From an uncultured Candidatus Saccharibacteria bacterium (GTDB lineage Bacteria > Patescibacteriota > Minisyncoccia > Phycocordibacterales > CAYSCM01), in assembly GCA_964429815.1 (NCBI GenBank), contig CAYSCM010000001.1:320001-384000 (forward strand): a DNA stretch of 64,000 nucleotides, read 5' to 3'. Position 1 is the stretch's first letter. Every line of letters starts with the position of its first letter. The notes under the pieces are model-generated. The model did not search any database, was not told where the DNA came from, and was given only the letters and a program-made list of their open reading frames with translations. The position numbers and the translations under genes were made by a program. Shown one piece after another: positions 5,056 through 28,648 of the stretch.

Positions 5056-5113
5056 AAACCGGGGATTGGTCACACGTTTCGCTTCGCGAACTCGCGATCC
5101 CGCCCCACCGTCG

Positions 5114-5181
5114 CCTCACTCTCTCCGCAATCCAGAGAACAGAAAAGGACACGCAGAAGCGTGTCCTTTTCTGTTCTTGTT
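5114..5181. repeat. hairpin-containing direct repeat, copy 1 (about 68 nt)
   Basis: About 91% identical to 6285-6348; internal 19-20 bp stem gagaacagaaaaggacacgc/agaa/gcgtgtccttttctgttc. Confidence 0.75.
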
Positions 5182-5240
5182 ACACAGCTAGGACGATAGT
5201 GGCTCAAGATTTATAAGTTGGTTTTCCACACTTATGCTGC

Positions 5241-6116
5241 CTAGAAGTTTATATTTATGACGGTTCCGGCTACGTCTGAAATGTGGAAATAGGGTGGAGG
5301 TGATAAGGATTCAGAATTGAAAACGAAAGGATGTGAGGTTGTGGAAATACCGTCGCTTGCCTTGAAGGAGATCTGAAAAGTCGGGGTGTAGAATACTACA
5401 GTCGACATAAGATCACTTAATTTCGTTACCATCGGAACTAGATAATCATATATGCCGTCATGACCAACCGTTGCACTAATGGCTGTCATGTTTGGCGTCA
5501 ACGAAAAAGTAGAGGTTGCATTAGCAAAATGGTCATACGCGACGACCTGTATTGAACGGAAATCAATTGGAAAGGTAGTGTTCAAGGTAACCGAGCTGTT
5601 AGAAAGAACTGCGTAAATTACCTTTTTAGGAAGCACAGGAATTTGAGGACTTGCTACCGCTACTACAAGAGGCGGTGGGCCTTGTGGTGTAGGTGGTGGT
5701 GCCGGCTGGAACTCCTTTTTCTGCTGAGCAATTAACATATTCATCTTATTCTCTAAGTCCTGTATTGCGGCCGTTGTCGTGGGGGCGCTTTGACCGTCAG
5801 CACTTGTCGAAACCTGACTGATATGTTTCCGCGTAAGGGGACCGACATAACCCGACGCAGGAGAAATGCCCTCTTTAATTTGGAACGCGATTACAGCCCT
5901 CTTTGTCATAGGTCCGAAGAATGAAGTAATCGGTCCGGAATATACATTTTTTAATGTAAGAAATTGCTGAAGAGCAGCAACATCAGCACCTCTGATTCCT
6001 AGTGACAGGTTTCTATTGAAAGTAGCGTCAGCAAAAGCTACTAGAGGCAAAACTGCGAATACCAAAAGAAGTTTCTTCATTGAATACAATATGCAACAAC
6101 TGGCGCCGTTAAGCAA
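5241..6116 (-). CDS. secreted protein with peptidoglycan-binding (PG_binding_1-like) domain and Pro-rich linker
   Basis: 291 aa; signal peptide MKKLLLVFAVLPLVAFA; GIRGADVAALQQFLTLKN...TKRAVIAFQ motif; PAPPPTPQGPPP linker. Confidence 0.7.
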   Translation of the reverse strand: MLNGASCCILYSMKKLLLVFAVLPLVAFADATFNRNLSLGIRGADVAALQQFLTLKNVYSGPITSFFGPMTKRAVIAFQIKEGISPASGYVGPLTRKHISQVSTSADGQSAPTTTAAIQDLENKMNMLIAQQKKEFQPAPPPTPQGPPPLVVAVASPQIPVLPKKVIYAVLSNSSVTLNTTFPIDFRSIQVVAYDHFANATSTFSLTPNMTAISATVGHDGIYDYLVPMVTKLSDLMSTVVFYTPTFQISFKASDGISTTSHPFVFNSESLSPPPYFHISDVAGTVININF

Positions 6117-6284
6117 AATTACTCGAATCCGTCAAAGTGTGAGATTTTGTTCATTGCGGGGTAATTGGTCACGGATATTTCGCTCGTCGTCGCTCGCGAA
6201 ATTCCGCGACCCCGGCTCGGCATCGAAATCCGCTGATTTCGATATGCCTGCGCCTTGCAATTCCCGCCGCGAGGCAAGTAGTTG

Positions 6285-6348
6285 CCTCGCTCTCTCCACA
6301 AACCAGAGAACAGAAAAGACACGCAAAAGCGTGTCTTTTCTGTTCTTG
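6285..6348. repeat. hairpin-containing direct repeat, copy 2
   Basis: Same 68-nt unit as 5114-5181 with paired G/C single-base deletions on both stem arms; directly abuts 3' end of tRNA-Met. Confidence 0.75.
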
Positions 6349-6420
6349 TTGCGGGGGCGGGAATTGCACCCGCGACCTCAAGGTTATGAGCCTTGCGAGC
6401 TACTGCTGCTCCACCCCGCT
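6349..6420 (-). tRNA. tRNA-Met (anticodon CAU); initiator-like overall layout with A1:A72 mismatch
   Basis: Manual fold: AGCGGGG/UG/GAGC-AGCAGUA-GCUC/G/CAAGG-CUCAUAA-CCUUG/AGGUC/GCGGG-UGCAAUU-CCCGC/CCCCGCA-A; no encoded CCA. Confidence 0.8.
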
Positions 6421-6454
6421 ATGATGGGAGAAGTATAGCCAAAGGGGAGATTTA

Positions 6455-6493
6455 TGCAAATAAAAAAGTAACCCGCTGGTGTATGCGGGTTAC
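6455..6493 (-). terminator. intrinsic terminator for 6490..6822 gene
   Basis: gtaacccgc-tggtgtat-gcgggttac hairpin followed by T6 on minus strand. Confidence 0.65.
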
Positions 6494-6822
6494 GAGGCTT
6501 TGCCGTTGTATTTCTTTCGGCCGCGCTTAAATTCTTTGAGCACTTCGTCAGAGATGAGGAGAAATTCCTTCTGCCCACCATCGTCCACGTGCTTTTTGCG
6601 CCGAATCGGAATTTTCATCCAAAGGGTCCTTGAGCGGGTGTAGAGGTAGATCACCTCTACGGGTCCCTCGTCGGAAAAGACGCCGACATCCTTTCGAGGA
6701 TCCTCCGGTCCAAAACCTTTCTTATAAATGTGCTGCGGTTCCTTGGGATCGTCGTTTTTCTCGATGTAGGGCATCCCATGCGGGATGTCGCGAAAGTGCA
6801 TGAGTCCCAATTTCATGACCAA
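6490..6822 (-). CDS. hypothetical protein
   Basis: 110 aa ORF, basic C-terminus, followed by terminator. Confidence 0.45.
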   Translation of the reverse strand: MVMKLGLMHFRDIPHGMPYIEKNDDPKEPQHIYKKGFGPEDPRKDVGVFSDEGPVEVIYLYTRSRTLWMKIPIRRKKHVDDGGQKEFLLISDEVLKEFKRGRKKYNGKAS

Positions 6823-6979
6823 CCCCCTGTGCTCCTTTTTCCTACTTGATGATGTGATGGAAATAGAGTTGCGTCAACGAACAAAGCCCAATTCAAGTTT
6901 TTATTTTGCGTAACCTGGTGGACGCTGTTGGAACTAAAATACGTGAAAATCAGGAATGCATTTATATTCCCGATCTATC

Positions 6980-7303
6980 CTAAGAATCACCCTCAATCAT
7001 CTCGCCCACCAAAAAGTCGCAGCCATTAGGGCCGACGACTGCCGTGTGCTCCTTACTAGGTGGGACATCAAATCGGTCACCTTCTTTAAGGGTTACTTCT
7101 TCATCACCAAACTGAAACGTGAGTCCGCCGCCAAGTATGTACATGCTGACTTTGTCCTTGTGGACATGCGCCGGGTACTTCGTTCGTGCGTCATCATGCC
7201 ATTCATACACGTGAGGGAATCCTTCGTCAGCCAATTTGTGCTTCAATACCTCTTTATCCATAACTGAATTGTAACAAAAATGGACTATCTTTCGGATAGT
7301 CAT
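6980..7303 (-). CDS. cupin-domain protein
   Basis: 107 aa; cupin_2-like His cluster HVHKD...; beta-barrel pattern. Confidence 0.65.
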   Translation of the reverse strand: MTIRKIVHFCYNSVMDKEVLKHKLADEGFPHVYEWHDDARTKYPAHVHKDKVSMYILGGGLTFQFGDEEVTLKEGDRFDVPPSKEHTAVVGPNGCDFLVGEMIEGDS

Positions 7304-16032: not shown

Positions 16033-16262
16033 TATGAATGTCTCAACCACGACGCTTCTCGTGCAAAAATCTTTCGCGGGGAATCCCCCGGTCGAGCTCA
16101 ACGCGCTCCAGCGCTTCCTCGAGCCGCATGCGACGACCATCGTTCATGCGTGGGTCGTACTCTGGATCCTAACCGCTCTGTTCGTTTTGTTGAAACTGCA
16201 TCGAGACTATCGTTCTCGTAGATAGAAAAAAGACGAAGACATGCTAGAATCACGCCGTTATA

Positions 16263-16333
16263 TTGCGGGATCGTCTAATGGTAGGACACCAGGTTCTGGC
16301 CCTGGTAATCTAGGTTCGAGCCCTAGTCCCGCA
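16263..16333 (+). tRNA. tRNA-Gln (CUG)
   Basis: UGCGGGA...CCAGG-UUCUGGC-CCUGG...CUAGG-UUCGAGC-CCUAG-UCCCGCA-G; U1:A72 as in bacterial tRNA-Gln. Confidence 0.85.
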
Positions 16334-16447
16334 GCAGCAGTCAGCGCAGTATCGTGCGAGACCGGAGAGCCTCAGAACTCAAAGGTCCGCCGATTCGCTG
16401 AATGTACTATTCCGTTATTGCATATCCGGTGAGTCCGGTATTCAGAA

Positions 16448-16480
16448 CAAAAATCGCCCCTTACAGGGCGATTTTTGTTG
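16448..16480. terminator. bidirectional intrinsic terminator between tRNA-Gln and recombinase gene
   Basis: aaaaatcgcccc-ttac-agggcgatttttgtt; A/T runs on both sides. Confidence 0.75.
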
Positions 16481-16493
16481 GCCGACTATTTCT

Positions 16494-17825
16494 CTAGAGA
16501 TATCTTTTTGCTTTTAATGTGATTCTGGTTTTAAGAGTTCCTAGCAGTTCACGCTTCTCAAGAACATCGCCTTCTGTCAGGACATGTCTCACATAATGCC
16601 GTGCATCGAAGTGTTCCTCGACACGCTGCGGTGATTGCTGCCCCAAGAACATTCTTTGGAATTTCTTAGCTCGGGCGCGTTCCTCCTCAAATTTCTTGCG
16701 AATTATCGGCTCATTGAGTTCTAATTTATCTATCTGCTCTATGAGTTGTCGGACAAGCTCCTCTTCGCGAATGTAACCGGCGGCTCTACAGGCGCGATCC
16801 TTTGAGCGATTGCATCCGTAGTACAGGTACGTGGCAGTCGTGCCCGTGCTTTTGATGAGTTTGTGCTTCTCCTCGGCGCAGACACCCGAGCCGCACGCTC
16901 CGCAGGTGATGAGTCGTGTGAAGGCGAACTCCTTGGACTCACCGCGCACAATTCTGTCGCGCTTGAGTTGTGCCAGCACCTTTTCATACAGTTCACGGGT
17001 GATTATCGGTTCGTGTTTGCCCGTGTACCATTTGCCGCTCCCGATTGGGTACTCAAACTGTCCGAAGTAGAACGGCGTCTGCAGGATTTTGTAAATGTTA
17101 CTCAAAGTCAGAGGCTTATTGCTCGTTGCGCTTCGGAAATTCATATCGAACTTGAGCCAGTGATAGAGCTTTTGCCCAGACCATTTCTCGTATGCGACCT
17201 TCTCGAACATCTGCCGAACGACTGGTGCACGGTCGGGGTCGACCATGACGTACCCCTTCCGGTCGACACGTTTCTCGTTGAGGTAGCCGGTCGGCGCAGG
17301 CGCAGGCCATAAGCCCATCTCACAGCGCATGCGGAGGCCTCGCTTCACATTCACACTTTTGTTGTCGTTCTCAAGCTTTGCCTGACTGCACAAAATCATG
17401 AGAAGAAATTTCTCACTCGGTGAATTTGTGAACTTCTGGCCGTATGTTCGGATCTCGACGAGAAGTTTTTGGTCCATCAAGTCCACCAGACTCCCGAGGT
17501 CGCCTGCGTTGCGGCTCAGGCGGTCTGGGTTCCAGGTGAGTACACCGTTGAACCGTCCGGAGCGGATGTCTTTGAGAATCTCATTGAACACAGGCCGCTG
17601 GCCGGAGTCCTTCGCAGAGTGTGCTTCACGCCGGATGTCCACGATCTCGATGCCATCACGCTCCGCGATCTCGAGCATTTCCTTCACCTGAGAGTCGATG
17701 GACAGTGCCTGTTTTTCGCTCGTGTCCTCAGTCGACTTTCGAGCGTAGAGTACATACTTAACTGGTACTGCTAATTGCGGCACGAAAGTGCCTGGAGCTC
17801 TAGCCCCTCGGGTTATGGTTTCCAT
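16494..17825 (-). CDS. large serine recombinase (resolvase/integrase family)
   Basis: 443 aa; N-terminal resolvase domain YARKSTEDTSEKQALSIDSQ (catalytic Ser), recombinase domain, zinc-ribbon CGACGSGVC...YYGC. Confidence 0.9.
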   Translation of the reverse strand: METITRGARAPGTFVPQLAVPVKYVLYARKSTEDTSEKQALSIDSQVKEMLEIAERDGIEIVDIRREAHSAKDSGQRPVFNEILKDIRSGRFNGVLTWNPDRLSRNAGDLGSLVDLMDQKLLVEIRTYGQKFTNSPSEKFLLMILCSQAKLENDNKSVNVKRGLRMRCEMGLWPAPAPTGYLNEKRVDRKGYVMVDPDRAPVVRQMFEKVAYEKWSGQKLYHWLKFDMNFRSATSNKPLTLSNIYKILQTPFYFGQFEYPIGSGKWYTGKHEPIITRELYEKVLAQLKRDRIVRGESKEFAFTRLITCGACGSGVCAEEKHKLIKSTGTTATYLYYGCNRSKDRACRAAGYIREEELVRQLIEQIDKLELNEPIIRKKFEEERARAKKFQRMFLGQQSPQRVEEHFDARHYVRHVLTEGDVLEKRELLGTLKTRITLKAKRYL

Positions 17826-17917
17826 ATACCCAAAGGAATGACGCCTCCCGCCAGGAAGTCCAACGTCTAAGTTGGTAACCTTCAGAGCCGATTTGACTTT
17901 GATTCATTTGATGCATT

Positions 17918-18229
17918 ATGATGGTAGGTATGGAAGATTCAGTTTCAGGGTACAAAGCAGTTAAACGGCTCGCGGTAGAGCGGCCTGATTGGCTCCCTAT
18001 CATTCGAGAGTGCTTGAATTTGCGGAAAGAGATTCACAACACTGACTTTGCTGGCGCATGGGTATATCAGCGTCTTCAAGAGAAGGGCGGACCGAAATTT
18101 TCAAATCTGCGTCTTCTTGTTAGCTTTGGCATCTTGAAGAAAGAGGCGACCTCACGCGGTGGTCGACGCGCGTACTACTCCTTCGTCGATCCTGAGGGTG
18201 TCGAGAAAGCATTAAGCGAGCTTTCATAA
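17918..18229 (+). CDS. hypothetical small protein (possible DNA-binding/controller) upstream of methyltransferase
   Basis: 103 aa; ends 5 nt before MTase start. Confidence 0.4.
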   Translation: MMVGMEDSVSGYKAVKRLAVERPDWLPIIRECLNLRKEIHNTDFAGAWVYQRLQEKGGPKFSNLRLLVSFGILKKEATSRGGRRAYYSFVDPEGVEKALSELS

Positions 18230-18233
18230 TTTT

Positions 18234-19331
18234 ATGAAAGTCAAAGTTGCGAACACAAGCCTACACGGCGCAAAGAAAGCGAAAAAAGACGAGTTCTACA
18301 CTCAACTCGTTGATATTGAAAAAGAGCTGAAGCACTACAAAAACCAGTTTCGCGGCAAAGTCGTGTACTGCAACTGTGACGACCCGTTCGAAAGCAACTT
18401 TTTCAAATACTTTGCCGCAAATTTCAACGCGCTTGAGTTGAAAAAACTTATCACGACGAGCTTCGTCAAATCGCCTATCGCTGGTGGGCAGTTGCCGCTT
18501 TTTGAAATGCAGGGGCTAAAACCCGACGGCAAAGAACCGTTTAAAATTGCAATACGGGAGGTCCCAGACGCGGACGGCGACGGTGCAATCAATCTTGATG
18601 ATGTGAAGTATCTACTGCAGCACGACAAGAACACAGCAACCCCGCTGAAAGGAAACGGCGATTTCCGCAGCGATGAATGCATGGAATTTCTTAAAGAGGC
18701 AGACATCGTCGTGACAAACCCGCCATTCTCACTTTTTCGTGAATACATTTCGCAACTGGTAGAACACAACAAAAAATTCCTGATCATCGGCAACATCAAC
18801 GCCGTCACCTACAAAGAAGTGTTCCCTTTGATTAAGGCAAACAAACTATGGCTCGGTGCAAGTATCCATAGTGGGGACCGCGAGTTCCGAGTGCCGGAGG
18901 ACTACCCGCTAAACGCAGCTGGCTACCGAGTTGACAGCGACGGAAACAAATATATTCGCGTCAAAGGTGTGCGCTGGTTTACCAATCTCGATTACGACGA
19001 ACGCCACGACAGCGTTGTGCTTTACAAAAAGTATTCGCCAAAAGAATATCCTAAATACGATAACTACGACGCCATAAATGTGAACAAAACTGTTGATATT
19101 CCCATGGACTATAAAGGCGCTATCGGTGTACCAATTACTTTCCTTGATAAATACAGCCCCGACCAATTTACAATTCTAGGCGCACTAATCTCTGGTCCAC
19201 TTGGACAAGAGCTAGGAGCGACCAAAACAAAACAGATCAGGCCAAACGGAAAAACGACAATGGAATACGGGCCTATTATCAAGACGAAGGGTTATTACGG
19301 AAGGATTGTCATTAAAAATAAAACGCTATGA
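18234..19331 (+). CDS. M.EcoRI-family N6-adenine DNA methyltransferase
   Basis: 365 aa; N-terminus KKAKKDEFYTQ...KVVYCNCDDP...FFKYFA and IVVTNPPFS (motif IV); collinear with M.EcoRI as recalled. Confidence 0.9.
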   Translation: MKVKVANTSLHGAKKAKKDEFYTQLVDIEKELKHYKNQFRGKVVYCNCDDPFESNFFKYFAANFNALELKKLITTSFVKSPIAGGQLPLFEMQGLKPDGKEPFKIAIREVPDADGDGAINLDDVKYLLQHDKNTATPLKGNGDFRSDECMEFLKEADIVVTNPPFSLFREYISQLVEHNKKFLIIGNINAVTYKEVFPLIKANKLWLGASIHSGDREFRVPEDYPLNAAGYRVDSDGNKYIRVKGVRWFTNLDYDERHDSVVLYKKYSPKEYPKYDNYDAINVNKTVDIPMDYKGAIGVPITFLDKYSPDQFTILGALISGPLGQELGATKTKQIRPNGKTTMEYGPIIKTKGYYGRIVIKNKTL

Positions 19332-20419
19332 AAATCGAGCTACAAAAAATAAAAATACGCGATGTCGTGAATGGCTACAAAGACAGCGCCGAGGAAGGCG
19401 TCGTAGCGTATGGTGGTAAGCTCGATATTCGTCCAAAGTACCAGCGTGAGTTCATCTACAAAGACAAACAGCGCGATGCGGTGCTTGATACGGTCAAGAA
19501 AGGATTTCCACTCAACGTTATGTATTGGATGGTGCGGGAGGACGGCGGTTATGAAGTGCTCGACGGCCAACAGCGCACCATCAGCATCGGCCAGTATGTC
19601 AATGGTGATTTCTCGCTCGGCGACCGCTATTTCCACAATCTCATCAAGGAGGAGCAAGAGCAGATTTTGAGCTACGAGCTGATGATTTATTTCTGTGAGG
19701 GCACAGATAAGGAACGGCTCGACTGGTTTAGGACAATCAACATCGCGGGCGAAAAGTTAACAGACCAAGAGCTTCGCAATGCTGTATACACTGGCCCTTG
19801 GCTTTCAGACGCAAAACTCAAATTCAGCAAGACGGGCTGTGCTGCCTATCACTTGGCAAACGACGGTGGGGCGCTCGTCAGTGGCTCGCCGATCCGACAG
19901 GAGTATTTGGAAACTGCACTCTCATGGATAAACAAGGGTGAGGTTGCGGCCTACATGGCGAAGCATCAGCATGACAAAGACGCTGAGAAACTATGGACTT
20001 ACTTCCAAGACGTAATTGGGTGGGCGCGAAAGACGTTCCCCAACTACCGCAAGGAAATGGCGCATGTGAACTGGGGTGAACTATACAATGAGTTCAAAGA
20101 CAAGAAACTGAATGCCGCCAAACTCGAAACCGAAGTCAAGAAACTAATGCAGGACGAGGATGTAACGAAAAAGTCCGGCATCTATCCGTATGTTTTGACC
20201 GGCAACGAGCGCGAACTTTCTATCCGCGCGTTCACCGACAAAATGAAGCGCGAGGCATACGAGCGACAAGACGGCGTCTGTCCGTTTTGCAAAAAGAAGT
20301 TTGACGTTTCAGAAATGGAAGCCGACCACATCACGCCATGGCATGAGGGCGGAAAAACAACAGCTGAAAACTGCCAGATGCTCTGCAAGCAAGATAACCG
20401 GACAAAGTCCGGGAAATGA
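19328..20419 (+). CDS. DUF262 (ParB-like nuclease-fold) protein with C-terminal HNH endonuclease domain
   Basis: 363 aa; IRPKYQREF and DGQQRT DUF262 motifs; C-terminal CPFCKKKF...ADHITPWHEGG...NCQMLCKQDN HNH; start overlaps MTase stop (ATGA). Confidence 0.85.
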   Translation: MKIELQKIKIRDVVNGYKDSAEEGVVAYGGKLDIRPKYQREFIYKDKQRDAVLDTVKKGFPLNVMYWMVREDGGYEVLDGQQRTISIGQYVNGDFSLGDRYFHNLIKEEQEQILSYELMIYFCEGTDKERLDWFRTINIAGEKLTDQELRNAVYTGPWLSDAKLKFSKTGCAAYHLANDGGALVSGSPIRQEYLETALSWINKGEVAAYMAKHQHDKDAEKLWTYFQDVIGWARKTFPNYRKEMAHVNWGELYNEFKDKKLNAAKLETEVKKLMQDEDVTKKSGIYPYVLTGNERELSIRAFTDKMKREAYERQDGVCPFCKKKFDVSEMEADHITPWHEGGKTTAENCQMLCKQDNRTKSGK

Positions 20420-20476
20420 ATCGAGAAGTCATCGAAAAAAACATGGCGACGAAATGACACAGACCATAAATATCCC

Positions 20477-21184
20477 ATGATAGAGCTACCATCTTGGCTT
20501 AAGATTGGAAAAATAATCGAAAAACTCGATTTCTCCAATTGGTTTAGTCGCCAGTTAAGAGATGATCAGCGTAAGTATGTGGGTGGGGACTACATCGAGA
20601 AAGTGGAAATACATAACCACGCTCCTTCAGGCACCATCGAGGAAGATCCGCTGGCCAGAGGACTGTATACGCTTGGTTTGGAAAGACGGCAGGTAGACAC
20701 GTACGGGGGCTTCTTCAATAGTTTTTATCTAGAAGTAGAGAAGAGACGGGAGCGTCAAATAACGAGAAGTGCTCATACCATGCTATTGGGTGCGGTTTTT
20801 GCCGTCGGGACAAAGTATCAAAACAATCCTGAGTGGAAAGAACACTGCTCATCGTCATTACGTGAAATATTCCACGAGTGGAGTGGCCCAGATGAATTCA
20901 GGCGGGACCTTGTTTCTGTCTACAACCACAGCAACGCAAAAGGAGGGCTTGCAACAGACGAGGAGGATAGTCTAACGTCATTTTGGCTTCTGTATCGATA
21001 TTTCTCTAGTATAGATCATCATCAAGCATCCGGAATACTGCACGCTCTACGCGCATTTCTTAGAGATAGCTCGCTTAAAATCGAGGACTGCGTGAATGAC
21101 GATATTTTTATTGAGAGAGCAAAAGATTTCTTCTCACATTTATCTCGTATTTCTGAAATCGCAAAGAAACGTACTGAACCATGA
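20477..21184 (+). CDS. hypothetical protein (no recognisable domain), upstream partner of 998-aa protein
   Basis: 235 aa; stop overlaps next start (ATGA). Confidence 0.6.
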   Translation: MIELPSWLKIGKIIEKLDFSNWFSRQLRDDQRKYVGGDYIEKVEIHNHAPSGTIEEDPLARGLYTLGLERRQVDTYGGFFNSFYLEVEKRRERQITRSAHTMLLGAVFAVGTKYQNNPEWKEHCSSSLREIFHEWSGPDEFRRDLVSVYNHSNAKGGLATDEEDSLTSFWLLYRYFSSIDHHQASGILHALRAFLRDSSLKIEDCVNDDIFIERAKDFFSHLSRISEIAKKRTEP

Positions 21185-24177
21185 ACCAGATCGAATTACA
21201 CAACAGGATAGATGAGTACATTGCTCACGGCCCAGGGAAGGCTGCATGGACGGCTGTAAAAAAAATAACTGAGATTCACCTCGACGTGAAGAAGTATTTT
21301 TATACTAGAGCCGATGAAAAGTGGTTTGACTTGGTACGCGGAGATATTCTGAATGTGGCGAAGACAAAAGCTAGTGATCCCACGAAATACTCATATCAAA
21401 CGCCTGAGCTTGATTATTTGGCTCGGGTGGCTGAGATAATTCCACAGAAGGTCACTAAACTCATTTTAGACACTTCCATATCTAAAGAGAACTTCAATCC
21501 AGAAGTGGTTGATCGTTTTCTTTGGATTTCGAGCAAATTGCCCGCCGACCAACTTAAACGAGTAGTCGTGAAAATCCGCGATGATCAATGGATTCAACTT
21601 ATGGCGCCTTTCAATAGGTGGGTTTTTGAATATCAAAAGATGTTCGAGACGCTTGCAGTTGCCAAGGACCAGGACAGCATACTTATCCTTGCGGAAGCGG
21701 TTTTGCGGACACGTTCAAAGGATGAGCTGGCAAAGATTAACAATGGGATATCGACGGACAATCCCTTCTTCCTTTCAGACCTCAGCGAAACAGACATTTT
21801 CAGTCTTCTTGCCTCTTCTGATGATAAACATCTAGATGCTGCTCTTCGGGTCGCAACTAATGCACTCGCGGGCGTTATCAGGACTGGCGATCGAGAAGAT
21901 AACGTTTTTGAAATCGGTGAGATTTTTCACCTCTTTGATGTTGACTTTTTTTCTCTTGAATTGGGCAAGGGCCGACATTATTCACATAGAGATGAGGTCA
22001 GAGAACTGGCAGCCGTTGTCAAAACACTCGTGAATCGCTCTATTGGTAAGAGCTGCAACGATTCAAAAGAGACTCGCCGGATCTACGAACACATAGAACG
22101 TTTGCCGGATAGTCGATCCATGTGGCGACTGCGGCTCTATGTCTGGAGTCTGTGTCCGAAGGTGTTCAAGGACGAATTACAGACTGCATTTTTCAAGGGC
22201 CTAGAGTCGCGAGAAATGTTATGGCCAATTACAGGCGGTGCGGAATACGATCACGCTCTTAAAAGGTGTTTTGATGTTGTTCTGTCCGAGGAGGACCGGA
22301 AGGCATATATTCAACGTGCCTTTGAGATACTTGACGTGAATGAAGAGCACCCATACGGCTACGGTATATTTGCCAGTATCCAAAGGCATCTGTCAGAACC
22401 GCAGAAGCAGCGGGTGGAAGCCCTCTACAAGATGCCGCTTGATCCAAATTATACGCCTGAGCCTAGCGTAGGTCATTCGTATGCCGGCACAATAGTTTCG
22501 CAGTCACCCAAGGAGGCAGATGATGTCTGGGGAAAGCCGGTTCCGGAGATTGTACAAGCTCTAGAAACCCGCTTGACGCCGGAGCAACTACAAAAGATAG
22601 ACGGTAGGAAAGATTTTCTAAAACCGGTAAACGCAGAGGGGGTGGCGGATAAAATGCGGTCACAAATGAAAGAACGCACGAGTGAATATACCGCCAACGC
22701 GACTTTGTTTTTCGATAGAAAACTAATGGATCCACACTACACCTACTCCTTCTTCCGTGGCGTGGATGAGATTATTCGCTTGCATCGAGAAAAAGTGTCA
22801 GAAATAAACTGGCAGCAGATTATTGCGCTTGGTGTCGCAATTACGAAAGAAGGACAACGAGAGTCTTTTGATTTCACTAAGCGAGAAAGGGAGCACTTCG
22901 ATGCCTGGCTCGCAGGATGGATTGGTGTACACGACGGCCTCGGAGATGTTTTGCAGGATTATCTCCGAAATGATAACGGAATCACTGAGGAGTCCTTCAA
23001 TAAGAACCGGGAGGATCTTTTCAAGATTATTTGCTACCTACTCACCATACCGGATCCGGTTCCTAAGGACGAGCAACCTGAAACGGCTGGCATGACTACC
23101 ACGCCGCCCGGCGGAGAGAAATTAGTGAGCGATCCTTTCGCGATAGCCATTAACTCGGTTCGCGGCCGAGCATATCAAGCGTTCGTAATGTTTATGGAGT
23201 GGGATGGGCGTAAGTATGCGAAGGACGCAAAAGTGAAGCTATCTCCAGATGTATTGCAAGAGTACAAGGATCTTTTAGCGCGTGAAAATACCGGCGCAAT
23301 TTTCTTCATGTACGGACACTATCTACCGTTTTTCTACTTCCGCGATGTTAAGGAAGTCCGAAAGCTCCTCCCGCAAATATTTACGAGCGACAGTAAAAAG
23401 GTTCATCTGTATCTCGCGGCGTGGGAGGGTTATCTGACTCGTAGTCTCTATCGAGAGATGTTTGTCCAGCTACAGGGTGAATACGAACGAGCAATCAAAA
23501 ATAATCCTGACTCTTATCCGAAAAGAAATTACCGTGCAGACCTTGACGAAGCATTAGCAACTCATATGGCATTGGCGTACATCCACTTCGAGGATTTCAC
23601 GCTTGATTCAAGTCTGTTCAAACTTTTTTGGAGCACTCCAAACCAAAAGAGGTATCAAGAGTTTGTATCATTCATCGGACGCTATGTGATCTCGAAAGAT
23701 CATGCAAAGGAGAATCTCGCTGAAAATCCTGAGATCAAACTTTCTAAGCTTATTGACTTCTGGGATTGGACGCTTGAATACGTTAATGACCCGGATGTAT
23801 TTGCCGAATATGGTTTCTGGATGGATACAACCGGTGGTTTATATGACGATGTAACGGCACTTGCCCGAAGGATTCAGAAAACACTCAAAAAATCTAAAGG
23901 TAAAGTCGACTGGGAGATTAAGCTAATGGATTCGCTCCCGACGTTGGCGGCAGCAGTCCCCAAGGACACACTGGAGATTTTACGACTTTATCTCAAACCA
24001 CTTGATGTGAGCCCACGCAGTCGACACTTCATGCATGTCGACGCCGACCTTGTAAATATTTTCAGGACGCTGCATAAGAATCCAGAGACTCAAGACGAGA
24101 CTTATAAGTTGATCGACGAACTCCTGCCGTTGGGGAATGGGGTGTATTGGAAGTTGAAGGAGGCCTTAACGGAGTAG
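21181..24177 (+). CDS. large hypothetical protein (998 aa), predicted alpha-helical, no NTPase or nuclease motifs recognised
   Basis: Uninterrupted 3 kb ORF in lower-GC island; Trp/Tyr-rich; no Walker A. Confidence 0.7.
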   Translation: MNQIELHNRIDEYIAHGPGKAAWTAVKKITEIHLDVKKYFYTRADEKWFDLVRGDILNVAKTKASDPTKYSYQTPELDYLARVAEIIPQKVTKLILDTSISKENFNPEVVDRFLWISSKLPADQLKRVVVKIRDDQWIQLMAPFNRWVFEYQKMFETLAVAKDQDSILILAEAVLRTRSKDELAKINNGISTDNPFFLSDLSETDIFSLLASSDDKHLDAALRVATNALAGVIRTGDREDNVFEIGEIFHLFDVDFFSLELGKGRHYSHRDEVRELAAVVKTLVNRSIGKSCNDSKETRRIYEHIERLPDSRSMWRLRLYVWSLCPKVFKDELQTAFFKGLESREMLWPITGGAEYDHALKRCFDVVLSEEDRKAYIQRAFEILDVNEEHPYGYGIFASIQRHLSEPQKQRVEALYKMPLDPNYTPEPSVGHSYAGTIVSQSPKEADDVWGKPVPEIVQALETRLTPEQLQKIDGRKDFLKPVNAEGVADKMRSQMKERTSEYTANATLFFDRKLMDPHYTYSFFRGVDEIIRLHREKVSEINWQQIIALGVAITKEGQRESFDFTKREREHFDAWLAGWIGVHDGLGDVLQDYLRNDNGITEESFNKNREDLFKIICYLLTIPDPVPKDEQPETAGMTTTPPGGEKLVSDPFAIAINSVRGRAYQAFVMFMEWDGRKYAKDAKVKLSPDVLQEYKDLLARENTGAIFFMYGHYLPFFYFRDVKEVRKLLPQIFTSDSKKVHLYLAAWEGYLTRSLYREMFVQLQGEYERAIKNNPDSYPKRNYRADLDEALATHMALAYIHFEDFTLDSSLFKLFWSTPNQKRYQEFVSFIGRYVISKDHAKENLAENPEIKLSKLIDFWDWTLEYVNDPDVFAEYGFWMDTTGGLYDDVTALARRIQKTLKKSKGKVDWEIKLMDSLPTLAAAVPKDTLEILRLYLKPLDVSPRSRHFMHVDADLVNIFRTLHKNPETQDETYKLIDELLPLGNGVYWKLKEALTE

Positions 24178-24178
24178 C

Positions 24179-24397
24179 TTAGAGGAAATACTCAACATTC
24201 TTTCCGTATAGCTTCGCCAGCTTGTTGAGCCATATTGCTTCTACCCGCAATTCTCCCAGCTCAACTTTCGACACCCACGACTGAGAGCATTTGAGTTTGT
24301 CAGCGACCTCGGCTTGTGTCAGCCCCGCATCAAGGCGGGCTTTCCTCAGTCGCTTCACGAATACAGCCCGCTCGTCAGTATGAATGGACTTTCTCAT
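24179..24397 (-). CDS. XRE-family HTH transcriptional regulator
   Basis: 72 aa; LTQAEVADKLKCSQSWVSKVELG HTH. Confidence 0.8.
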   Translation of the reverse strand: MRKSIHTDERAVFVKRLRKARLDAGLTQAEVADKLKCSQSWVSKVELGELRVEAIWLNKLAKLYGKNVEYFL

Positions 24398-24424
24398 ACC
24401 TATAAGCGTCTATTCCGTTATGGG

Positions 24425-24443
24425 ATATTCCAAAATGGAATAT
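24425..24443. promoter_or_regulatory. perfect palindromic operator atattcca-aaa-tggaatat in divergent XRE/nuclease promoter region
   Basis: 8-bp perfect inverted repeat with 3-bp spacer, 28 nt upstream of XRE start. Confidence 0.6.
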
Positions 24444-24527
24444 TCAATGTTAGGCTACGAATGTCCGACAAAGGCAAGAGTTGGTAACCTCCTTCGCAAG
24501 CCTCCGAATCTAAGTTAGGAACACCAC

Positions 24528-24995
24528 ATGGACCCTATATCCAATAACAAGCGTAATACCATCCTTACCGGCGTCTCCGGCGAGTACTACGTCGCCGCTG
24601 AACTTTCGCGTCGTGGATACCTCGCCTCTATCACACTTCGCAACACCAAAGGCGTAGACATCCTCTGCTCAAACGCGGAGGCGAGTAAATCTGTAGGTAT
24701 CCAGGTAAAGGCAAAGTCGGGTAATGATCGTGTATGGATTCTCAACGAGAAAGGAGAACATTACTACGCGAACAATCTCTTTTACGTTTTTATCAACATC
24801 GACGACGGTCTCAACAAGCATCCTGAGTACACGGTCGTGCCCAGTAAGGTAGTTGCCGAGTACGCTCGCGAGTCGCACGCGAGGTGGTTAAGCGAACCGA
24901 AGAAGGACGGCAGCGCTCGCAAAGACACGACTATGCGGAAGTTTCAGGATCCGGAGGAGAAGTATCTTGGTCGGTGGGATCTGTTGGGTCTTTGA
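24528..24995 (+). CDS. PD-(D/E)xK-fold nuclease-like protein (YraN/Hjc-like motif)
   Basis: 155 aa; GVSGEYYVAAELSRRGY...RNTKGVDILC resembles GxxGE...GEIDLIA core. Confidence 0.5.
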   Translation: MDPISNNKRNTILTGVSGEYYVAAELSRRGYLASITLRNTKGVDILCSNAEASKSVGIQVKAKSGNDRVWILNEKGEHYYANNLFYVFINIDDGLNKHPEYTVVPSKVVAEYARESHARWLSEPKKDGSARKDTTMRKFQDPEEKYLGRWDLLGL

Positions 24996-25560
24996 ATTCG
25001 TTCCCGTATTTCTCATTCAACCTCTCGAGTGTCTTTTTGCTAATAACGATCTGCCCGTTTTCGTCTGAAAATGCTTCAATTAGGTCTTGTTTTCTCTGTC
25101 TCTCAACTTCGTCAAGGAATTTCTTCAACGAAGCCTCTCTGACAAGTAACTTCCCGTCGGGGCCGGTGAACATCCTCCGCAATTTCTTCAGGTCGATTTC
25201 CATCTGGTAGTCGGGACCGAATTCCTCATAGTCGTCGAACTTATCCATGAGCGGTATCTTCTCCTCCTCGCCGCGAAGCTTCGGGCTGTAGAACTTGCTG
25301 TTGTGCGTGAGGAAGAATTTGGAGTCCGCCTTGTCCCCGTTGTTGATCCCTTTGATGATGTTCGACTCCGCCTTCTCGCTCACGGCCTCCCGGCTCACTC
25401 TCCGCACGGTTTCCGCGGCCCGCTTGAATTCCGGGTCGTCGTGCATCCACCGGTATATGGTCATGCGCGTAACGTCGACCTTTCGCGCGGCCGTGCCGAT
25501 AAACGGCGTGGTCTCCAACGCCTTGAGGAATTCCTCGCGTTTATCGGCACCGTGCGTCAT
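24931..25560 (-). CDS. phage terminase small subunit-like HTH protein
   Basis: 209 aa; N-terminal HTH GTAARKVDVTRMTIYRWMHDDPEF; acidic C-terminus; 3' end overlaps the convergent gene by 65 nt. Confidence 0.5.
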   Translation of the reverse strand: MTHGADKREEFLKALETTPFIGTAARKVDVTRMTIYRWMHDDPEFKRAAETVRRVSREAVSEKAESNIIKGINNGDKADSKFFLTHNSKFYSPKLRGEEEKIPLMDKFDDYEEFGPDYQMEIDLKKLRRMFTGPDGKLLVREASLKKFLDEVERQRKQDLIEAFSDENGQIVISKKTLERLNEKYGNEFKDPTDPTDQDTSPPDPETSA

Positions 25561-25563
25561 AAA

Positions 25564-26925
25564 CTAGCCGATCTTCACGCGCTTCTTGCCTGTGAACTTC
25601 TCCCAGCGATTGAGAATTACTTCGGCGTACACAGGTGATTTCTCAATCAGGAAACAACGCCGACCAAGCGTGATGGATGCGATGAGCGTCGACCCGCTCC
25701 CGCCGAACGGCTCAAGCACGAGCTGCCCGCGCTTCGTGAGCGTCTTGATGTACGGCACGAGAATCTCGATCGGTTTTACGCCGAAGATGATCGCTTGGCC
25801 TGAAGATTTTTCATCAGCGGCATTGAACTCGATGAAATCGGTCGGGCAGTATTTCTTGTCTTTGCCGTAGCTCTCCCAGTGTGCGCCCTTGCCGTCAATG
25901 GCAAAGAGTGCCGTTTGGTACTCGTTCTCGTACAACTCCTGTTCGTTCTCGAGATTCAGACCGCTGTACTCCTCGCTCGTGCCGACCATCGCGATGTCGT
26001 GCTTGGAGAAGAACTTATTGCGCCCCGCGTATCCTTGGTTGCGGTTCGGCAAGTGCCACACGATCATATTGCGCACCTTCCAGTGCTTTTCCATCTCACT
26101 CCAGATTTCGCGAATGTTCTTCCAGTTTTCGTAGCAGATGATTGAGAAGTCCTTATTCGCAACTTTCGCAACATTGCTCATCCATTTCTCGGTGAAATCG
26201 GCTGGCAATGATTCTGTTTCAAGATAGCGACGGTTCTTCTTCGAGCCGAACCCAACCGTTGGCTCGCCATTGCGGGTCTTGCCTTTGAGGTAGTCCAGCC
26301 GATACGGAGGGTCCGTCATAACCATGTCCGCCTTTTCGGACATGAGCTTGAGCACATCTTCTTCGATAGTGCTGTCCCCACAGAGAAGCCGCGAACCGTC
26401 GAGCTCGTACACGTCGCCCTTCCGCACACCGATTGTTTTGATGTCGAGCTTTTTGAGCTCTTTCTCAAGTGAGAATTCCGCCTCCGTAGAATCTTCCTCA
26501 AAGATGTTGTCGAGTTCTTCGGAATCGAAGCCGACAGCCTCAAGGAATGCTTCGTCGAACTCGGCGAGCAACAGGTCGTAATCCCACTCACCGACAGCCT
26601 TGTTGAGGCGGAGGCAGAGGTCCTTCTCTTTTTCGATATCGGCAATGTGGACGAAGACGCACGGCACCTCCTTGTACCCGAGATCTTTCATGACTTCGAA
26701 GCGGAGGTTGCCGCCAATAATGACGTTCTCGCGCTCCTTGGCGCGGTTTACTACAAGGGGATCAACACTTCCATGCCGCTCAAGACTCTCGCGCACGGGC
26801 TTCTTCGTGTCATCGTTGACCAAACGAGGATTATATTCGGCGTGCTTAAGGCTGGTAATGGGAACATATTCGACCCACAGTTTGTGAGCCGTATCCGCAG
26901 AGACTGCGACAGTGTTTTTAGTCAT
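25564..26925 (-). CDS. ParB-like nuclease domain fused to DNA N6/N4 methyltransferase (phage-type)
   Basis: 453 aa; ParB N-terminal domain (VPCVFVH, GGNLRFE), then MTDPPY (motif IV) and C-terminal PFGGSGST (motif I): beta-class order. Confidence 0.85.
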   Translation of the reverse strand: MTKNTVAVSADTAHKLWVEYVPITSLKHAEYNPRLVNDDTKKPVRESLERHGSVDPLVVNRAKERENVIIGGNLRFEVMKDLGYKEVPCVFVHIADIEKEKDLCLRLNKAVGEWDYDLLLAEFDEAFLEAVGFDSEELDNIFEEDSTEAEFSLEKELKKLDIKTIGVRKGDVYELDGSRLLCGDSTIEEDVLKLMSEKADMVMTDPPYRLDYLKGKTRNGEPTVGFGSKKNRRYLETESLPADFTEKWMSNVAKVANKDFSIICYENWKNIREIWSEMEKHWKVRNMIVWHLPNRNQGYAGRNKFFSKHDIAMVGTSEEYSGLNLENEQELYENEYQTALFAIDGKGAHWESYGKDKKYCPTDFIEFNAADEKSSGQAIIFGVKPIEILVPYIKTLTKRGQLVLEPFGGSGSTLIASITLGRRCFLIEKSPVYAEVILNRWEKFTGKKRVKIG

Positions 26926-27012
26926 ATGGTTACGACTATTAACGAATAATAGGAGACGCTATGCCTCCTGTATGTAGTAGTCGCCGGAAAATCGGAGTTT
27001 AATACCCGCCCC

Positions 27013-27453
27013 TCACAGCTCCAATCCTGCGGGATATACTCGATTGGTTATGTAGGTATCACGCCCCGCGCGGCGGCGGAGGTCCTTTATTCCGTTTTTG
27101 AGAATGCTAAGAACGTATGTACGCGGCGCTGCGCCATTTTTGTGCTTGAAATTGAGCTTCGCGTTGATAAGCCGCAACTTCAGTTCGCTTTCTATATCAT
27201 CGGGGTCAAGATCTGGAACCCACTCGTATTCAGCAATCTTTCTGATGTCCGCGCTATATTGCAAATAGAGTTTAAAATTCGGTGCCATGCAATGGATTCT
27301 ACAACCGGTGTTCGAGTAAAAGGTGCCAGGCGAGAACGCAAAAATCTCCAATGACCCTAAATGAAGCATTCGAGATTTTTGAAAACGGTGGATAACTGAT
27401 TTGACGGGTTTTCGCAAAACTCTTGAGTGTCGTAACATTCGTATCATTTTCAA
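27013..27453 (-). CDS. hypothetical protein
   Basis: 146 aa ORF in AT-richer DNA; no motif recognised. Confidence 0.3.
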   Translation of the reverse strand: MKMIRMLRHSRVLRKPVKSVIHRFQKSRMLHLGSLEIFAFSPGTFYSNTGCRIHCMAPNFKLYLQYSADIRKIAEYEWVPDLDPDDIESELKLRLINAKLNFKHKNGAAPRTYVLSILKNGIKDLRRRAGRDTYITNRVYPAGLEL

Positions 27454-27557
27454 AAAATGACCCCAACCGAGACGGGTCAGTTTGCTATCATGAAAGTCTC
27501 CAAAGAATCCTTATAGTGTCTTACCACTCTGGGTTCTGAACCGGAGCGGCCAGCAGA

Positions 27558-27851
27558 TTACTTGGATTTCAAATAAAGCTCGCTGTATTTAATCATCGCG
27601 TTTTCGATGACTTTGAGACCCCTGCCTTTTCCCGTTGCGGTATAGATCCCCTCTTTTGATTTTGCGATTAAGCCGAGCTTCTTGAGGCGCATGAGCTTAA
27701 GGGTAAGCGTGCGGGTCGATATTCCTTGAAGCCAGCCCTCAAGCTCAGAAAAACGCTTCGGTCCTTCCGTAAGCGCTCGCATGATAAGCATCGTCCAGGT
27801 GTCAGAAAGGAGTTCGGCAACCCTGGTAATAGGGCAGGTCTCTTTGGTCAT
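27558..27851 (-). CDS. HxlR-family winged-helix transcriptional regulator
   Basis: 97 aa; CPITRVAELLSDTWTMLIMRAL...FSEL typical HxlR/MarR-like. Confidence 0.8.
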   Translation of the reverse strand: MTKETCPITRVAELLSDTWTMLIMRALTEGPKRFSELEGWLQGISTRTLTLKLMRLKKLGLIAKSKEGIYTATGKGRGLKVIENAMIKYSELYLKSK

Positions 27852-27868
27852 AGCTGTACTCTAGCATA

Positions 27869-27931
27869 GAAGACTTTACAAAGTAAAGTCTTTATTGTGG
27901 GGCTATGGAAACTGCTTTACAAAGTAAAGTA
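27869..27931. promoter_or_regulatory. two copies of palindrome (a)agactttac-aaa-gtaaagtctt in the HxlR/LUD divergent intergenic region
   Basis: 27869-27893 and 27913-27931 share ctttacaaagtaaagt. Confidence 0.55.
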
Positions 27932-27967
27932 CTTAGTGGAATATAGTGCTCTACTAGCTTCTATTTC

Positions 27968-28594
27968 ATGCATATGCCACAAGTCGCTGCATCAAAAAAA
28001 GAGAACGTGCCAACGTCACTCATTGATACGTTCAAAGAACGTAACATTGAAGTGATGCTCATCAAAGGTCGGGAGGGGGCGCTTGAAAAAATTAAAGAGT
28101 TGATTCCGGCAGGAGCGTCGGTGATGAATGGCACTTCGAGGACTCTCGAAGAGATCGGGTATATCGATTATCTGAAATCGGGCAAACATAGCTGGCGCAA
28201 TCTCCACGAGGAGATTTTGAAAGAAAGTGATCCGGCAAAGCAGGCGCGCCTGCGCAAGGAGGCATCGATCGCCGACTATTACCTCGGGAGCGTACATGCG
28301 CTCACGGGGGAGGGGGAGTTCCTCATAGCTTCTGCCTCTGGAAGCCAGCTTCCGGGCGTTGTGTTCAATGCCAGCAACCTGATTTTCGTAGTAGGAAAAC
28401 AGAAAATAGTCCCCGATCTGGCAGCCGCATTTAAACGCCTCAAAGAATACGTTGTTCCGCTTGAAGATGCACGCATGAAAAAGGCGCATGGCATAGGCAC
28501 GCTTCATTCGAAGACCTTACTATTTCACCGGGAAGCTCCGTTTACCGGACGCAAGGTTTACCTACTCCTCGTCGACGAAGAGCTTGGGTTTTAG
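27968..28594 (+). CDS. LUD-domain (LutC/YkgG-like) protein
   Basis: 208 aa; lactate-utilisation LUD domain pattern. Confidence 0.7.
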   Translation: MHMPQVAASKKENVPTSLIDTFKERNIEVMLIKGREGALEKIKELIPAGASVMNGTSRTLEEIGYIDYLKSGKHSWRNLHEEILKESDPAKQARLRKEASIADYYLGSVHALTGEGEFLIASASGSQLPGVVFNASNLIFVVGKQKIVPDLAAAFKRLKEYVVPLEDARMKKAHGIGTLHSKTLLFHREAPFTGRKVYLLLVDEELGF

Positions 28595-28648
28595 TCCGCC
28601 AAGCACTCACTAGTGCCGGCATAACCTCGCCCATGTTGCTCCGCACGA

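Follow-up and report, generated by a model that had tools for sequence, protein, structure and literature searches.

A probable integrative element headed by a large serine recombinase next to the tRNA-Gln gene of a Patescibacteria chromosome

Large serine recombinase (LSR) modules, such as phiC31, Bxb1, A118 and TP901-1, CcrAB of SCCmec, and XisF, share a three-domain enzyme with a catalytic serine. Their integrase gene lies at the edge of the element, and the element ends carry no long direct repeat. To our knowledge, those described so far insert within protein-coding genes or between genes, and the targeting of tRNA 3′ ends is characteristic of tyrosine integrases and seldom seen among serine integrases. 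We describe here a genomic island that matches the LSR modules in enzyme architecture, in the edge position of the integrase gene and in the lack of a long direct repeat, and that lies at the 3′ end of a tRNA-Gln(CTG) gene. It was found in a window of 64,000 nt from contig CAYSCM010000001.1 (positions 320,001–384,000 of the forward strand); all coordinates below are those of the window. The host belongs with the Patescibacteria, or candidate phyla radiation (CPR), a large share of bacterial diversity with genomes of ~1 Mb in which CRISPR is rare, and whose phage resistance and gene exchange are poorly known.

The island spans 16336–27556 (±~10 nt; ~11.2 kb), directly 3′ of tRNA-Gln(CTG). We consider it probable that this is an integrative element, inserted by its own LSR immediately 3′ of the tRNA gene in a Patescibacteria chromosome. 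The original prediction, a note made from the letters of the window alone, had likewise proposed an island at the tRNA-Gln 3′ end headed by a serine recombinase, and that proposal agrees with every line of evidence obtained, including a constant geometry of LSR and tRNA among related loci, synteny of the host side, and a conserved far end. We infer both mobility and a defence function for the island.

The LSR gene (16494–17825, minus strand) encodes 443 aa, and its stop codon is 158 nt from the tRNA-Gln 3′ end. All three domains that had been read from its translation score above Pfam cut-offs: Resolvase (PF00239, E 1e-20, residues 25–171), Recombinase (PF07508, E 1e-12) and Zn_ribbon_recom (PF13408, 26.9 bits against a cut-off of 25.3). 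The protein also matches the PHROG integrase family phrog_95 (E 2e-65); its best NCBIfam similarities, both below cut-offs, are to CcrB and XisF. It is full length, aligns end to end with its homologues, and carries the catalytic-serine motif YARKST (S31). The LSR is intact and is the sole recombinase in the island, where no tyrosine integrase was found. Homologues number more than 8000 (E < 1e-30), of which the best 120 are 66–100% identical and nearly all from Patescibacteria. The LSR is more conserved than the neighbouring host protein (60–76% vs ~50–62% identity).

To follow the LSR through other genomes we used 80 metagenome loci and 10 IMG/VR loci encoding LSRs of 51–76% identity, flanked by as much as 10 kb in both directions and turned so that the LSR is on the plus strand (single loci are cited below by L numbers). 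In every locus that has a tRNA gene downstream of the LSR, the first such gene lies on the opposite strand (47/47; binomial p 1e-14), and in all 47 its 3′ end faces the 3′ end of the LSR gene, as in the window. A tRNA gene is present in 23 of the 25 loci that have at least 8.6 kb downstream of the LSR; upstream of the LSRs, one tRNA was found in 515 kb. This LSR clade is tied to tRNA genes. The partner is tRNA-Gln (TTG or CTG) in 27 loci and tRNA-Ser (GGA, TGA, GCT, CGA), tRNA-Trp, tRNA-Asn or tRNA-Asp in the rest, at LSR-to-tRNA distances of 134 bp to 8.7 kb. Thirteen contigs break off no more than 75 nt past the LSR-proximal tRNA; assemblers break contigs at variable junctions. The order prfB-ftsE-ftsX on the 5′ side of tRNA-Gln is common to the window and to L023, L025, L041 and L049, and the LSR side differs in each. 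A shared host side with a differing LSR side bears the mark of a site-specific integration hotspot, rather than of vertical synteny. Two LSR genes per locus occur in L043, L069 and L075 and in one IMG/VR contig, to which L099 and L102 both belong.

At the left junction, the tRNA-Gln(CTG) gene is intact. It is present as predicted, with its coordinates moved from 16263–16333 to 16264–16335 (plus strand; ARAGORN); Rfam reports 16264–16334 with 59.6 bits. The tRNA 3′ end would form the host-side (B) arm of the junction, and the attL crossover region would fall in CAGCAGCAG (16332–16340, plus strand), which has a CAGCAG core in common with 27551–27556. There follows a conserved motif 1 (AGCAGTCAGCGCAGTATCGTGCGAGACCGGAGAGCC; 16337–16372, plus strand), the putative element-side P′ arm of attL. 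In at least 14 loci besides the window, the LSR-proximal tRNA-Gln is followed at once by motif 1, with the consensus ACGAGTCAGCGCAGTATCGAGG..AGACCGGAGAGCCT, and related motifs of the form TATCGAG...GACCGAGA follow the Ser, Trp and Asp tRNAs. The string TATCG is found within 30 nt past 29 of the 47 LSR-proximal tRNAs and past none of 25 other tRNAs taken from the same sequences, six of them the window's other tRNAs (Fisher p = 8e-8). Since motif 1 occurs only after LSR-proximal tRNAs, it travels with the element and not with tRNA genes generally.

Between motif 1 and the LSR lies motif 2 (16407–16448, plus strand), a conserved block beside the LSR 3′ end with nhmmer matches in 12 loci. It contains a small hairpin, CCGG-TGAGT-CCGG (16426–16438), with compensatory changes in two stem pairs. 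The bidirectional terminator proposed for this interval is seen in the minimum-free-energy fold as a perfect 14-bp stem between an A-run and a T-run (~16446–16479, both strands); it probably serves as the stop for the tRNA transcript as well as for the LSR gene, and relatives have kept an equivalent one. Motif 2 and the terminator remain associated with the LSR across loci, and in L022 motif 1 is at the tRNA and motif 2 with the LSR, 2.3 kb apart. A structured RNA between tRNA and LSR was considered and rejected: Rfam finds only the tRNA, RNAalifold returns just the 4-bp hairpin of motif 2, and the low fold energy of the interval comes mostly from the terminator.

Some loci depart from this arrangement. 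Another family of post-tRNA-Gln motifs (CAAsTyGwGATAGGTT...CGAGAnGC) replaces motif 1 in L063, L067, L079, L082, L093 and L049; L067 pairs the variant motif with a standard motif 2, a mix that suggests modular exchange between element subtypes. In L025 (4388–4720, minus strand) the tRNA 3′ end is present twice: 92 nt past an intact tRNA-Gln it recurs (GAGTCCAAGTCCCGCAGC), with motif 1, motif 2 and a terminator behind it; the second 3′ end looks like the scar of an earlier insertion within the tRNA. A contig of 2419 bp from SRR12313479 (L140) is identical to the window over the LSR and the motifs and stops inside tRNA-Gln at 16270, perhaps because the assembly broke at the junction, or simply because coverage was low. 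A 63-aa open reading frame (ORF) in public gene calls (16241–16432) overlaps tRNA-Gln and motif 1 and is almost certainly spurious.

The right boundary, placed originally at 27.0–27.9 kb from composition and gene content, is refined to ~27556 by a conserved element end that falls inside that range. This end, the putative P arm, is a non-coding stretch of ~100 nt (27458–27556, plus strand) recognized with a hidden Markov model (HMM), and it finishes in GGCCAGCAG (27548–27556). Within it, the hairpin TGACCC-CAACCGAGAC-GGGTCA forms a terminator on the minus strand (terminator-like site 27480–27463). The end is conserved in L034, L038, L068/L099 and the viral contigs L114 and L117, from the GACCGAGACGG hairpin to a terminal (C/A)CAGC(A); beyond that point similarity halts, and each locus continues in unrelated sequence. 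An HMM built from five end sequences also matches loci that were not used in training (L049 with E 1.5e-4, and L024, L039, L029, L063 and L080), and all these matches share the tRNA's strand and lie across the LSR from it, as expected for the distal end of an element. In the window, the motif 1 profile scores E 3e-9 and the element-end profile 4e-23, the window sequence being in both training sets. A right junction at 27476/27477 was dropped because similarity to L034 and L038 runs on to 27556. Also rejected was the idea that the element end mimics the 3′ half of a tRNA: it scores no better than shuffled sequences (77/1000 for the window, worse for the others), and Rfam finds no tRNA there.

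In the window, attL would read ...CTAGTCCCGCAGCAG meeting CAGTCAGCGCAG..., and attR ...GGAGCGGCCAGCAG meeting ATTACTTGGATT..., with only CAGCAG common to the two; the attR crossover probably lies at ~27551–27557. A shared core of only 6 nt is in keeping with a serine recombinase, as these enzymes do without long homology. Duplication of the tRNA 3′ end at the far end was not found: the two ends share no repeat as long as 11 nt, and a blastn-short search of the window gave nothing above chance. The search for attachment sites that had been suggested at the outset, as imperfect inverted repeats, yielded a core and conserved arms and no clear inverted symmetry.

Comparison across the family suggests how such an element would insert. 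The phage-type site attP would consist of the ~100-nt end (...CAGCA) joined to motif 1, and attB of the tRNA 3′ end with the sequence downstream of it. For the window, the predicted attB is 16290–16337 plus 27557–27610 (tRNA-Gln...CAGCAG followed by ATTACTTGG...), and the predicted attP is 27500–27556 plus 16338–16400 (...GGCCAGCAG followed by CAGTCAGCGCAG...). Crossover would take place in or beside the shared CAGCAG core, so that the tRNA would stay intact and would gain a new trailer and terminator from the element. Repeated integration at one tRNA could produce tandem arrays. The joined end and motif 1, the arrangement expected of attP, are intact in the IMG/VR contigs L114 and L117, which also encode a ParB-methylase, a protein like the terminase small subunit (TerS), a truncated terminase large subunit (TerL) and an LSR at 71% identity. 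The same join is found at the edge of L093 and inside L068, between two tandem units. In L068/L099, the internal junction of end and P′ (16452–16600) splits two element-like blocks. An IMG/VR scan with an 18-nt motif-1 pattern gave 33 matches, of which 31 cover the core only and are chance-like; the full motif was found only in L114 and L117.

The composition of the island also differs from that of the surrounding chromosome, as the checks suggested for it in the original prediction bring out. GC content is 0.485 inside 16338–27556 against 0.548 in the rest of the window, and tetranucleotide distance is 0.027 against 0.0188 ± 0.0028 outside, ~3 standard deviations above the flanks across 18–25 kb. 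The genes after the recombinase had been described as AT-richer than the flanking genes. This holds for the cargo, at 0.44–0.50 GC by gene; the LSR and the two backbone genes described next, at 0.52–0.53, are host-like.

A common backbone emerged when we clustered the ORFs of 54 long loci and the window (55 sequences). It consists of a ParB-methylase (34/55), a TerS-like helix-turn-helix (HTH) protein (34/55) that always lies directly after the ParB-methylase, and a ~490-aa protein (26/55) that is the terminase large subunit (phrog_38, E 2e-77; Pfam Terminase_6C). By tblastn, ParB-methylase homologues are found in 44 LSR loci. The usual order is ParB-methylase, HTH, TerL, LSR, with the packaging block inverted in a few loci, and elements of the family measure ~4–14 kb. 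In the window, the backbone is represented by a ParB-N and N6/N4 DNA methyltransferase fusion (25564–26925, minus strand; Pfam ParB_N and N6_N4_Mtase; phrog_498, E 3e-80) and a 209-aa TerS-like or excisionase-type HTH protein (24931–25560, minus strand; PHROG terminase-small, E 2e-8; weak Pfam HTH_17). The window copy keeps the backbone order minus TerL, and its slot between HTH and LSR holds a restriction-modification (R-M) system, a pair of genes for proteins of 235 and 998 aa, an XRE regulator and a 155-aa ORF. The layout of L031 is nearly identical, running from ParB-methylase and HTH through a 235/998-type pair, which lies on the opposite strand, to the LSR and tRNA-Gln.

The variable genes of the relatives are mostly defence-related. 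They include type I R-M genes (HsdR, HsdM, HsdS), an SNF2 helicase beside an Eco57I-like methylase gene, a C5-methylase, a STAND NTPase, a caspase/CHAT protease, DUF6119, TerB_N, a LexA-like repressor and EcoRI-type R-M (L069, L070). Portal, capsid and tail genes were not found in the ~90 loci, where TerL is the only such gene in the relatives; in the window, no TerL, capsid or tail gene was found, as had been reported, and no portal gene either. The description as a defence island or decayed prophage, and not an intact phage, therefore stands: since relatives carry TerL between HTH and LSR, 'phage-derived but decayed' is an apt term, and the window island is a somewhat decayed member of the family.

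Several points weigh against an integrative element of the kind proposed. Neither an empty site nor an excised circle was seen, nor a junction at read level. Flank-protein relatives, both in GTDB genomes and in the contigs of the closest homologue, have no tRNA-Gln nearby and no synteny, and an unoccupied site was not found because the host has no close sequenced relative. Five sequences went into the end HMM, and in loci outside that set it gives weak matches (E 1e-4 to 0.07). Inverted symmetry is not convincing among the B, P, B′ and P′ arms, and the likeness that the element end bears to the 3′ half of a tRNA (T-arm plus acceptor strand) is not statistically significant. The loci were gathered through LSR similarity, and duplicates among them (L045/L046, L088/L091, L068/L099/L102) slightly inflate the counts. 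The window copy has no TerL and no recognisable replication or directionality factor, and it may no longer be mobile.

The last point leads to a different reading, in which a phage-derived LSR element has become an immobile relic that is kept for its R-M system and other cargo, the LSR being a leftover. We think this unlikely. The loss of TerL, which 26 of the 55 sequences retain, would fit it, as would the want of any recognisable replication gene or directionality factor, the truncated look of a sigma-like ORF that has region 2 only, and the occupied state of the site in all three samples with this genome (Logan SRR12313479, SRR12313480 and SRR12313482, identified by exact-protein look-ups). 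Against it, the LSR is full length, with its catalytic serine motif and end-to-end alignment to homologues, and both predicted att arms are well preserved when scored with family profiles whose training sets include the window. LSR integration, moreover, requires no other element gene. That the recombinase is instead a resident one, a vertically inherited resolvase or invertase that happens to neighbour tRNA-Gln while the AT-rich genes arrived by some other route, we regard as very improbable. Its homologues are indeed very common and unusually conserved in Patescibacteria, and adjacency to tRNA-Gln recurs in many genomes; yet the partner tRNA changes among Gln-CTG, Gln-TTG, four Ser isoacceptors, Trp, Asn and Asp under a constant geometry. 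The same gene order at tRNA-Gln in related genomes, which had been named as evidence against an island, is not what was found: LSR and backbone are shared, and cargo, tRNA species and host flanks vary between loci. The LSR also accompanies phage terminase genes, has homologues in IMG/VR contigs, occurs in some loci in two or three copies or in tandem units, and has around it no inverted-repeat pair that would suit an invertase acting on a local segment.

A further possibility concerns the family's way of life. It may be a phage satellite that packages itself into helper capsids with its own TerS and TerL, the window copy relying on a helper terminase; this seems to us doubtful, though less so than a relic. 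The backbone of ParB-methylase, TerS-like protein, TerL and integrase without capsid, portal or tail, the small element sizes, and the several copies in contigs that IMG/VR holds as viral are all in its favour. The window itself has an integrase, an XRE regulator and a TerS-like protein, with TerL in relatives and no replication module found. Against a satellite are the want of a replication module, of capsid-remodelling genes and of a known helper in the family; the terminase genes may merely mark a decayed prophage arm, and packaging cannot be shown from contig-level data. For an integrative element inserted by its own LSR, which we prefer, spread of the family by satellite-like packaging in phage particles with its own terminase genes is a speculative addition, as is continued mobility of the window copy without TerL.

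Among the cargo, the genes nearest to the LSR form an R-M system. An EcoRI-family N6-adenine DNA methyltransferase (type II M; 18234–19331, plus strand) matches Pfam EcoRI_methylase (E 5e-149) and, over its full length, PADLOC MTase_II (E 3e-129). It overlaps by 4 nt a gene for a protein with DUF262/GmrSD_N and HNH endonuclease domains (19328–20419, plus strand; PADLOC REase_II PDLC03418, E 2.7e-140, full length; Pfam GmrSD_N and HNH), which by profile match and gene order is predicted to be the type II restriction enzyme that partners the EcoRI-type methylase. The same pair of M and R genes occurs in L069. By homology, we take the system to be probably active; a point on the other side is that the window shows no avoidance of GAATTC or CAATTG and no depletion of any palindromic hexamer. 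Five of the 14 GAATTC sites of the window fall in 24994–26473, in 1.5 kb of the HTH and ParB-methylase genes. A 103-aa ORF just upstream (17918–18229, plus strand), a gene call in public assemblies and possibly part of the R-M cassette, has no family match in Pfam, PHROG, PADLOC or NCBIfam. An ORF of the same size occupies the same position beside the related R-M system of L069 (~13.6 kb), and the 103-aa ORF is possibly an unrecognised controller protein.

The next two genes, which overlap by 4 nt and together make up one third of the island, encode a helical protein of 235 aa (20477–21184, plus strand) and an alpha-solenoid of 998 aa (21181–24177, plus strand). The larger protein is related to the C-terminal part of Dsr1 and has no SIR2 domain. 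Its match to PADLOC Dsr1 (PDLC04166, E 7.5e-19) runs from residues 420–932 to profile positions 712–1167 of 1227, and 29 of 38 family members match Dsr1 as well (best E 2e-29). No sequence match was found in Pfam, PHROG, NCBIfam or PDB. Homologues at 40–65% identity form at least 240 clusters, mostly from Patescibacteria, with some from Omnitrophota, Elusimicrobia and Cloacimonadota. The AlphaFold model is an all-helical solenoid with a predicted local distance difference test (pLDDT) score of 88, and its structural neighbours are only generic HEAT/ARM folds at template modelling (TM) scores of 0.25 or less, none of them specific. The C-terminal domain of DSR2 is likewise described as an alpha-solenoid (PMC11850899).

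About a quarter of the homologues listed (28 of 120) are fused to an N-terminal extension of ~170–200 aa. A profile of these extensions finds the separate upstream proteins: the partner in L016 with E 2e-33, and others with 6e-11, 3.5e-10 (the 235-aa protein of the window) and 7e-10. The pair is therefore one functional unit that exists in split or fused form. The small domain has a set of invariant or near-invariant residues, PS..GA..NxDW..Q..HSxREI...HH, with H126, S127, R129, H181 and H182 among the invariant ones. The 235-aa protein has no match in the Pfam, PHROG, PADLOC or NCBIfam libraries and just 60 representative clusters among 1.84 billion; its model is a helical bundle of moderate confidence with non-specific fold matches. 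Neither SIR2 nor any other Pfam domain was found in 38 unfused and 28 fused members (66 relatives). In unrelated contigs, the pair adjoins R-M systems, AbiEii and LSRs. We offer the unit as a candidate for defence, one that would pair a sensor scaffold of the Dsr1 type with another effector, at a confidence that falls just short of even. In such a system a new small domain would be the candidate to take the place of SIR2. Two points weigh against a defence role, namely that it is argued from partial homology and neighbourhood only and that the small domain has no recognisable catalytic fold.

After the pair come a 72-aa XRE-family HTH regulator (24179–24397, minus strand; Pfam HTH_31 and HTH_3; PHROG repressor and regulator families) and, divergent from it, a 155-aa ORF (24528–24995, plus strand) that matches phrog_29029, of unknown function (E 1.5e-16), and has homologues in L072 and L080. 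By homology, the two may form a regulatory pair. The PD-(D/E)xK nuclease named in the original prediction is presumably this ORF; it has no Pfam, NCBIfam or PDB match, and its PD-(D/E)xK-like character may be read only from an E...D...QVK pattern seen by eye. The prediction did better with the EcoRI-type methyltransferase, DUF262-HNH protein, XRE regulator, TerS-like HTH and ParB-methyltransferase, all of which profile matches confirm, and it made no mention of the 235- and 998-aa genes, of the DUF262-HNH protein as the cognate restriction enzyme, or of the host phylum. The last gene inside the island is a sigma-70 region 2-only ORF (27013–27453, minus strand; 146 aa from a TTG start, 91 aa in public calls). 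It matches Pfam Sigma70_r2 (E 8.5e-6) and, below cut-off, TIGR02937; no homologue was found in the other LSR loci.

The flanks of the island are host-like. To the left of tRNA-Gln lie prfB, ftsE, ftsX, pyrG and a gene for a 456-aa protein without assigned function. Homologues of the latter are found only in Patescibacteria (among them Kaiserbacteria, Paceibacterota and records labelled Saccharibacteria), at 29–62% identity; the closest, 62% identical, is not syntenic and has no tRNA-Gln. By these affinities, the host is a Paceibacteria-like member of the Patescibacteria with no close sequenced relative. On the right, the stop codon of an HxlR-family regulator gene (27558–27851, minus strand; Pfam HxlR) abuts the junction. 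It is the first host gene past the island and not part of the element, and none of the LSR loci compared has a homologue. Beyond it are genes for a LUD-domain protein and PAP2 and further host-looking genes. The HxlR and LUD-domain genes (27557–28600) are also GC-poor (0.486 and 0.504), with tetranucleotide distance raised to ~29 kb, and may have been acquired at an older date or be left over from a previous element at this tRNA. A second low-GC patch (5001–7000; 0.47), which has the top tetranucleotide distance outside the island (0.030), holds a gene for a 291-aa PG_binding_1 protein (5241–6116, minus strand) beside tRNA-Met (6348–6420) and could be another small segment acquired at a tRNA.

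For the window itself, the result is a precisely bounded island with a corrected gene inventory. More widely, and tentatively, we suggest that it samples a very large CPR family of phage-derived elements which, with an LSR clade dedicated to tRNA 3′ ends and switching between tRNA species, and with a ParB-methylase/TerS/TerL packaging module, would provide the main shuttles of anti-phage genes, among them a new split or fused system of small helical effector and Dsr1-like solenoid sensor; we hold this picture to be somewhat more doubtful than not. If true, it would give a widespread, concrete vehicle for defence genes in the CPR, and a candidate for defence in which the sensor of Dsr1 type is retained and the effector exchanged. 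It would also offer serine integrases with predictable attB sites at tRNA ends, useful as genetic tools for lineages that have almost none. In a search of full-text literature, which did not cover subscription journals, nothing was found that describes the family, or tRNA-targeting LSRs in Patescibacteria, or that links serine recombinases, tRNA sites and Patescibacteria.

Set beside known systems, the LSR itself is ordinary, and an integrative island of defence genes is a familiar class. The R-M cassette resembles the EcoRI family in its full-length methylase match and overlapping nuclease gene, and differs in that the nuclease is DUF262 plus HNH and not an EcoRI-like PD-(D/E)xK enzyme. The 998-aa protein has the C-terminal homology in common with Dsr1 and, for want of the SIR2 domain that defines Dsr1, does not belong to it; in the place of SIR2 stands a helical domain of ~170–235 aa, separate or fused, that has no known relatives. 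With tRNA-linked islands and P4-like and phage-inducible chromosomal island (PICI) satellites, the element shares tRNA adjacency, a backbone flanking variable anti-phage slots, a size of ~10 kb and a packaging-related gene. Those islands use a tyrosine integrase and duplicate the tRNA 3′ end, whereas here an LSR is found with only a 6-nt core. Unlike them, too, the element has no primase or replication module that we could find, has relatives with both a TerS-like protein and TerL, and resides in a CPR host. It differs from known LSRs in that the clade as a whole keeps to the 3′ ends of tRNA genes, and of several specificities. What is unusual is this LSR clade on multiple tRNA 3′ ends, the combination of terminase and ParB-methylase with the integrase and without virion genes, and the abundance of the family in the CPR.

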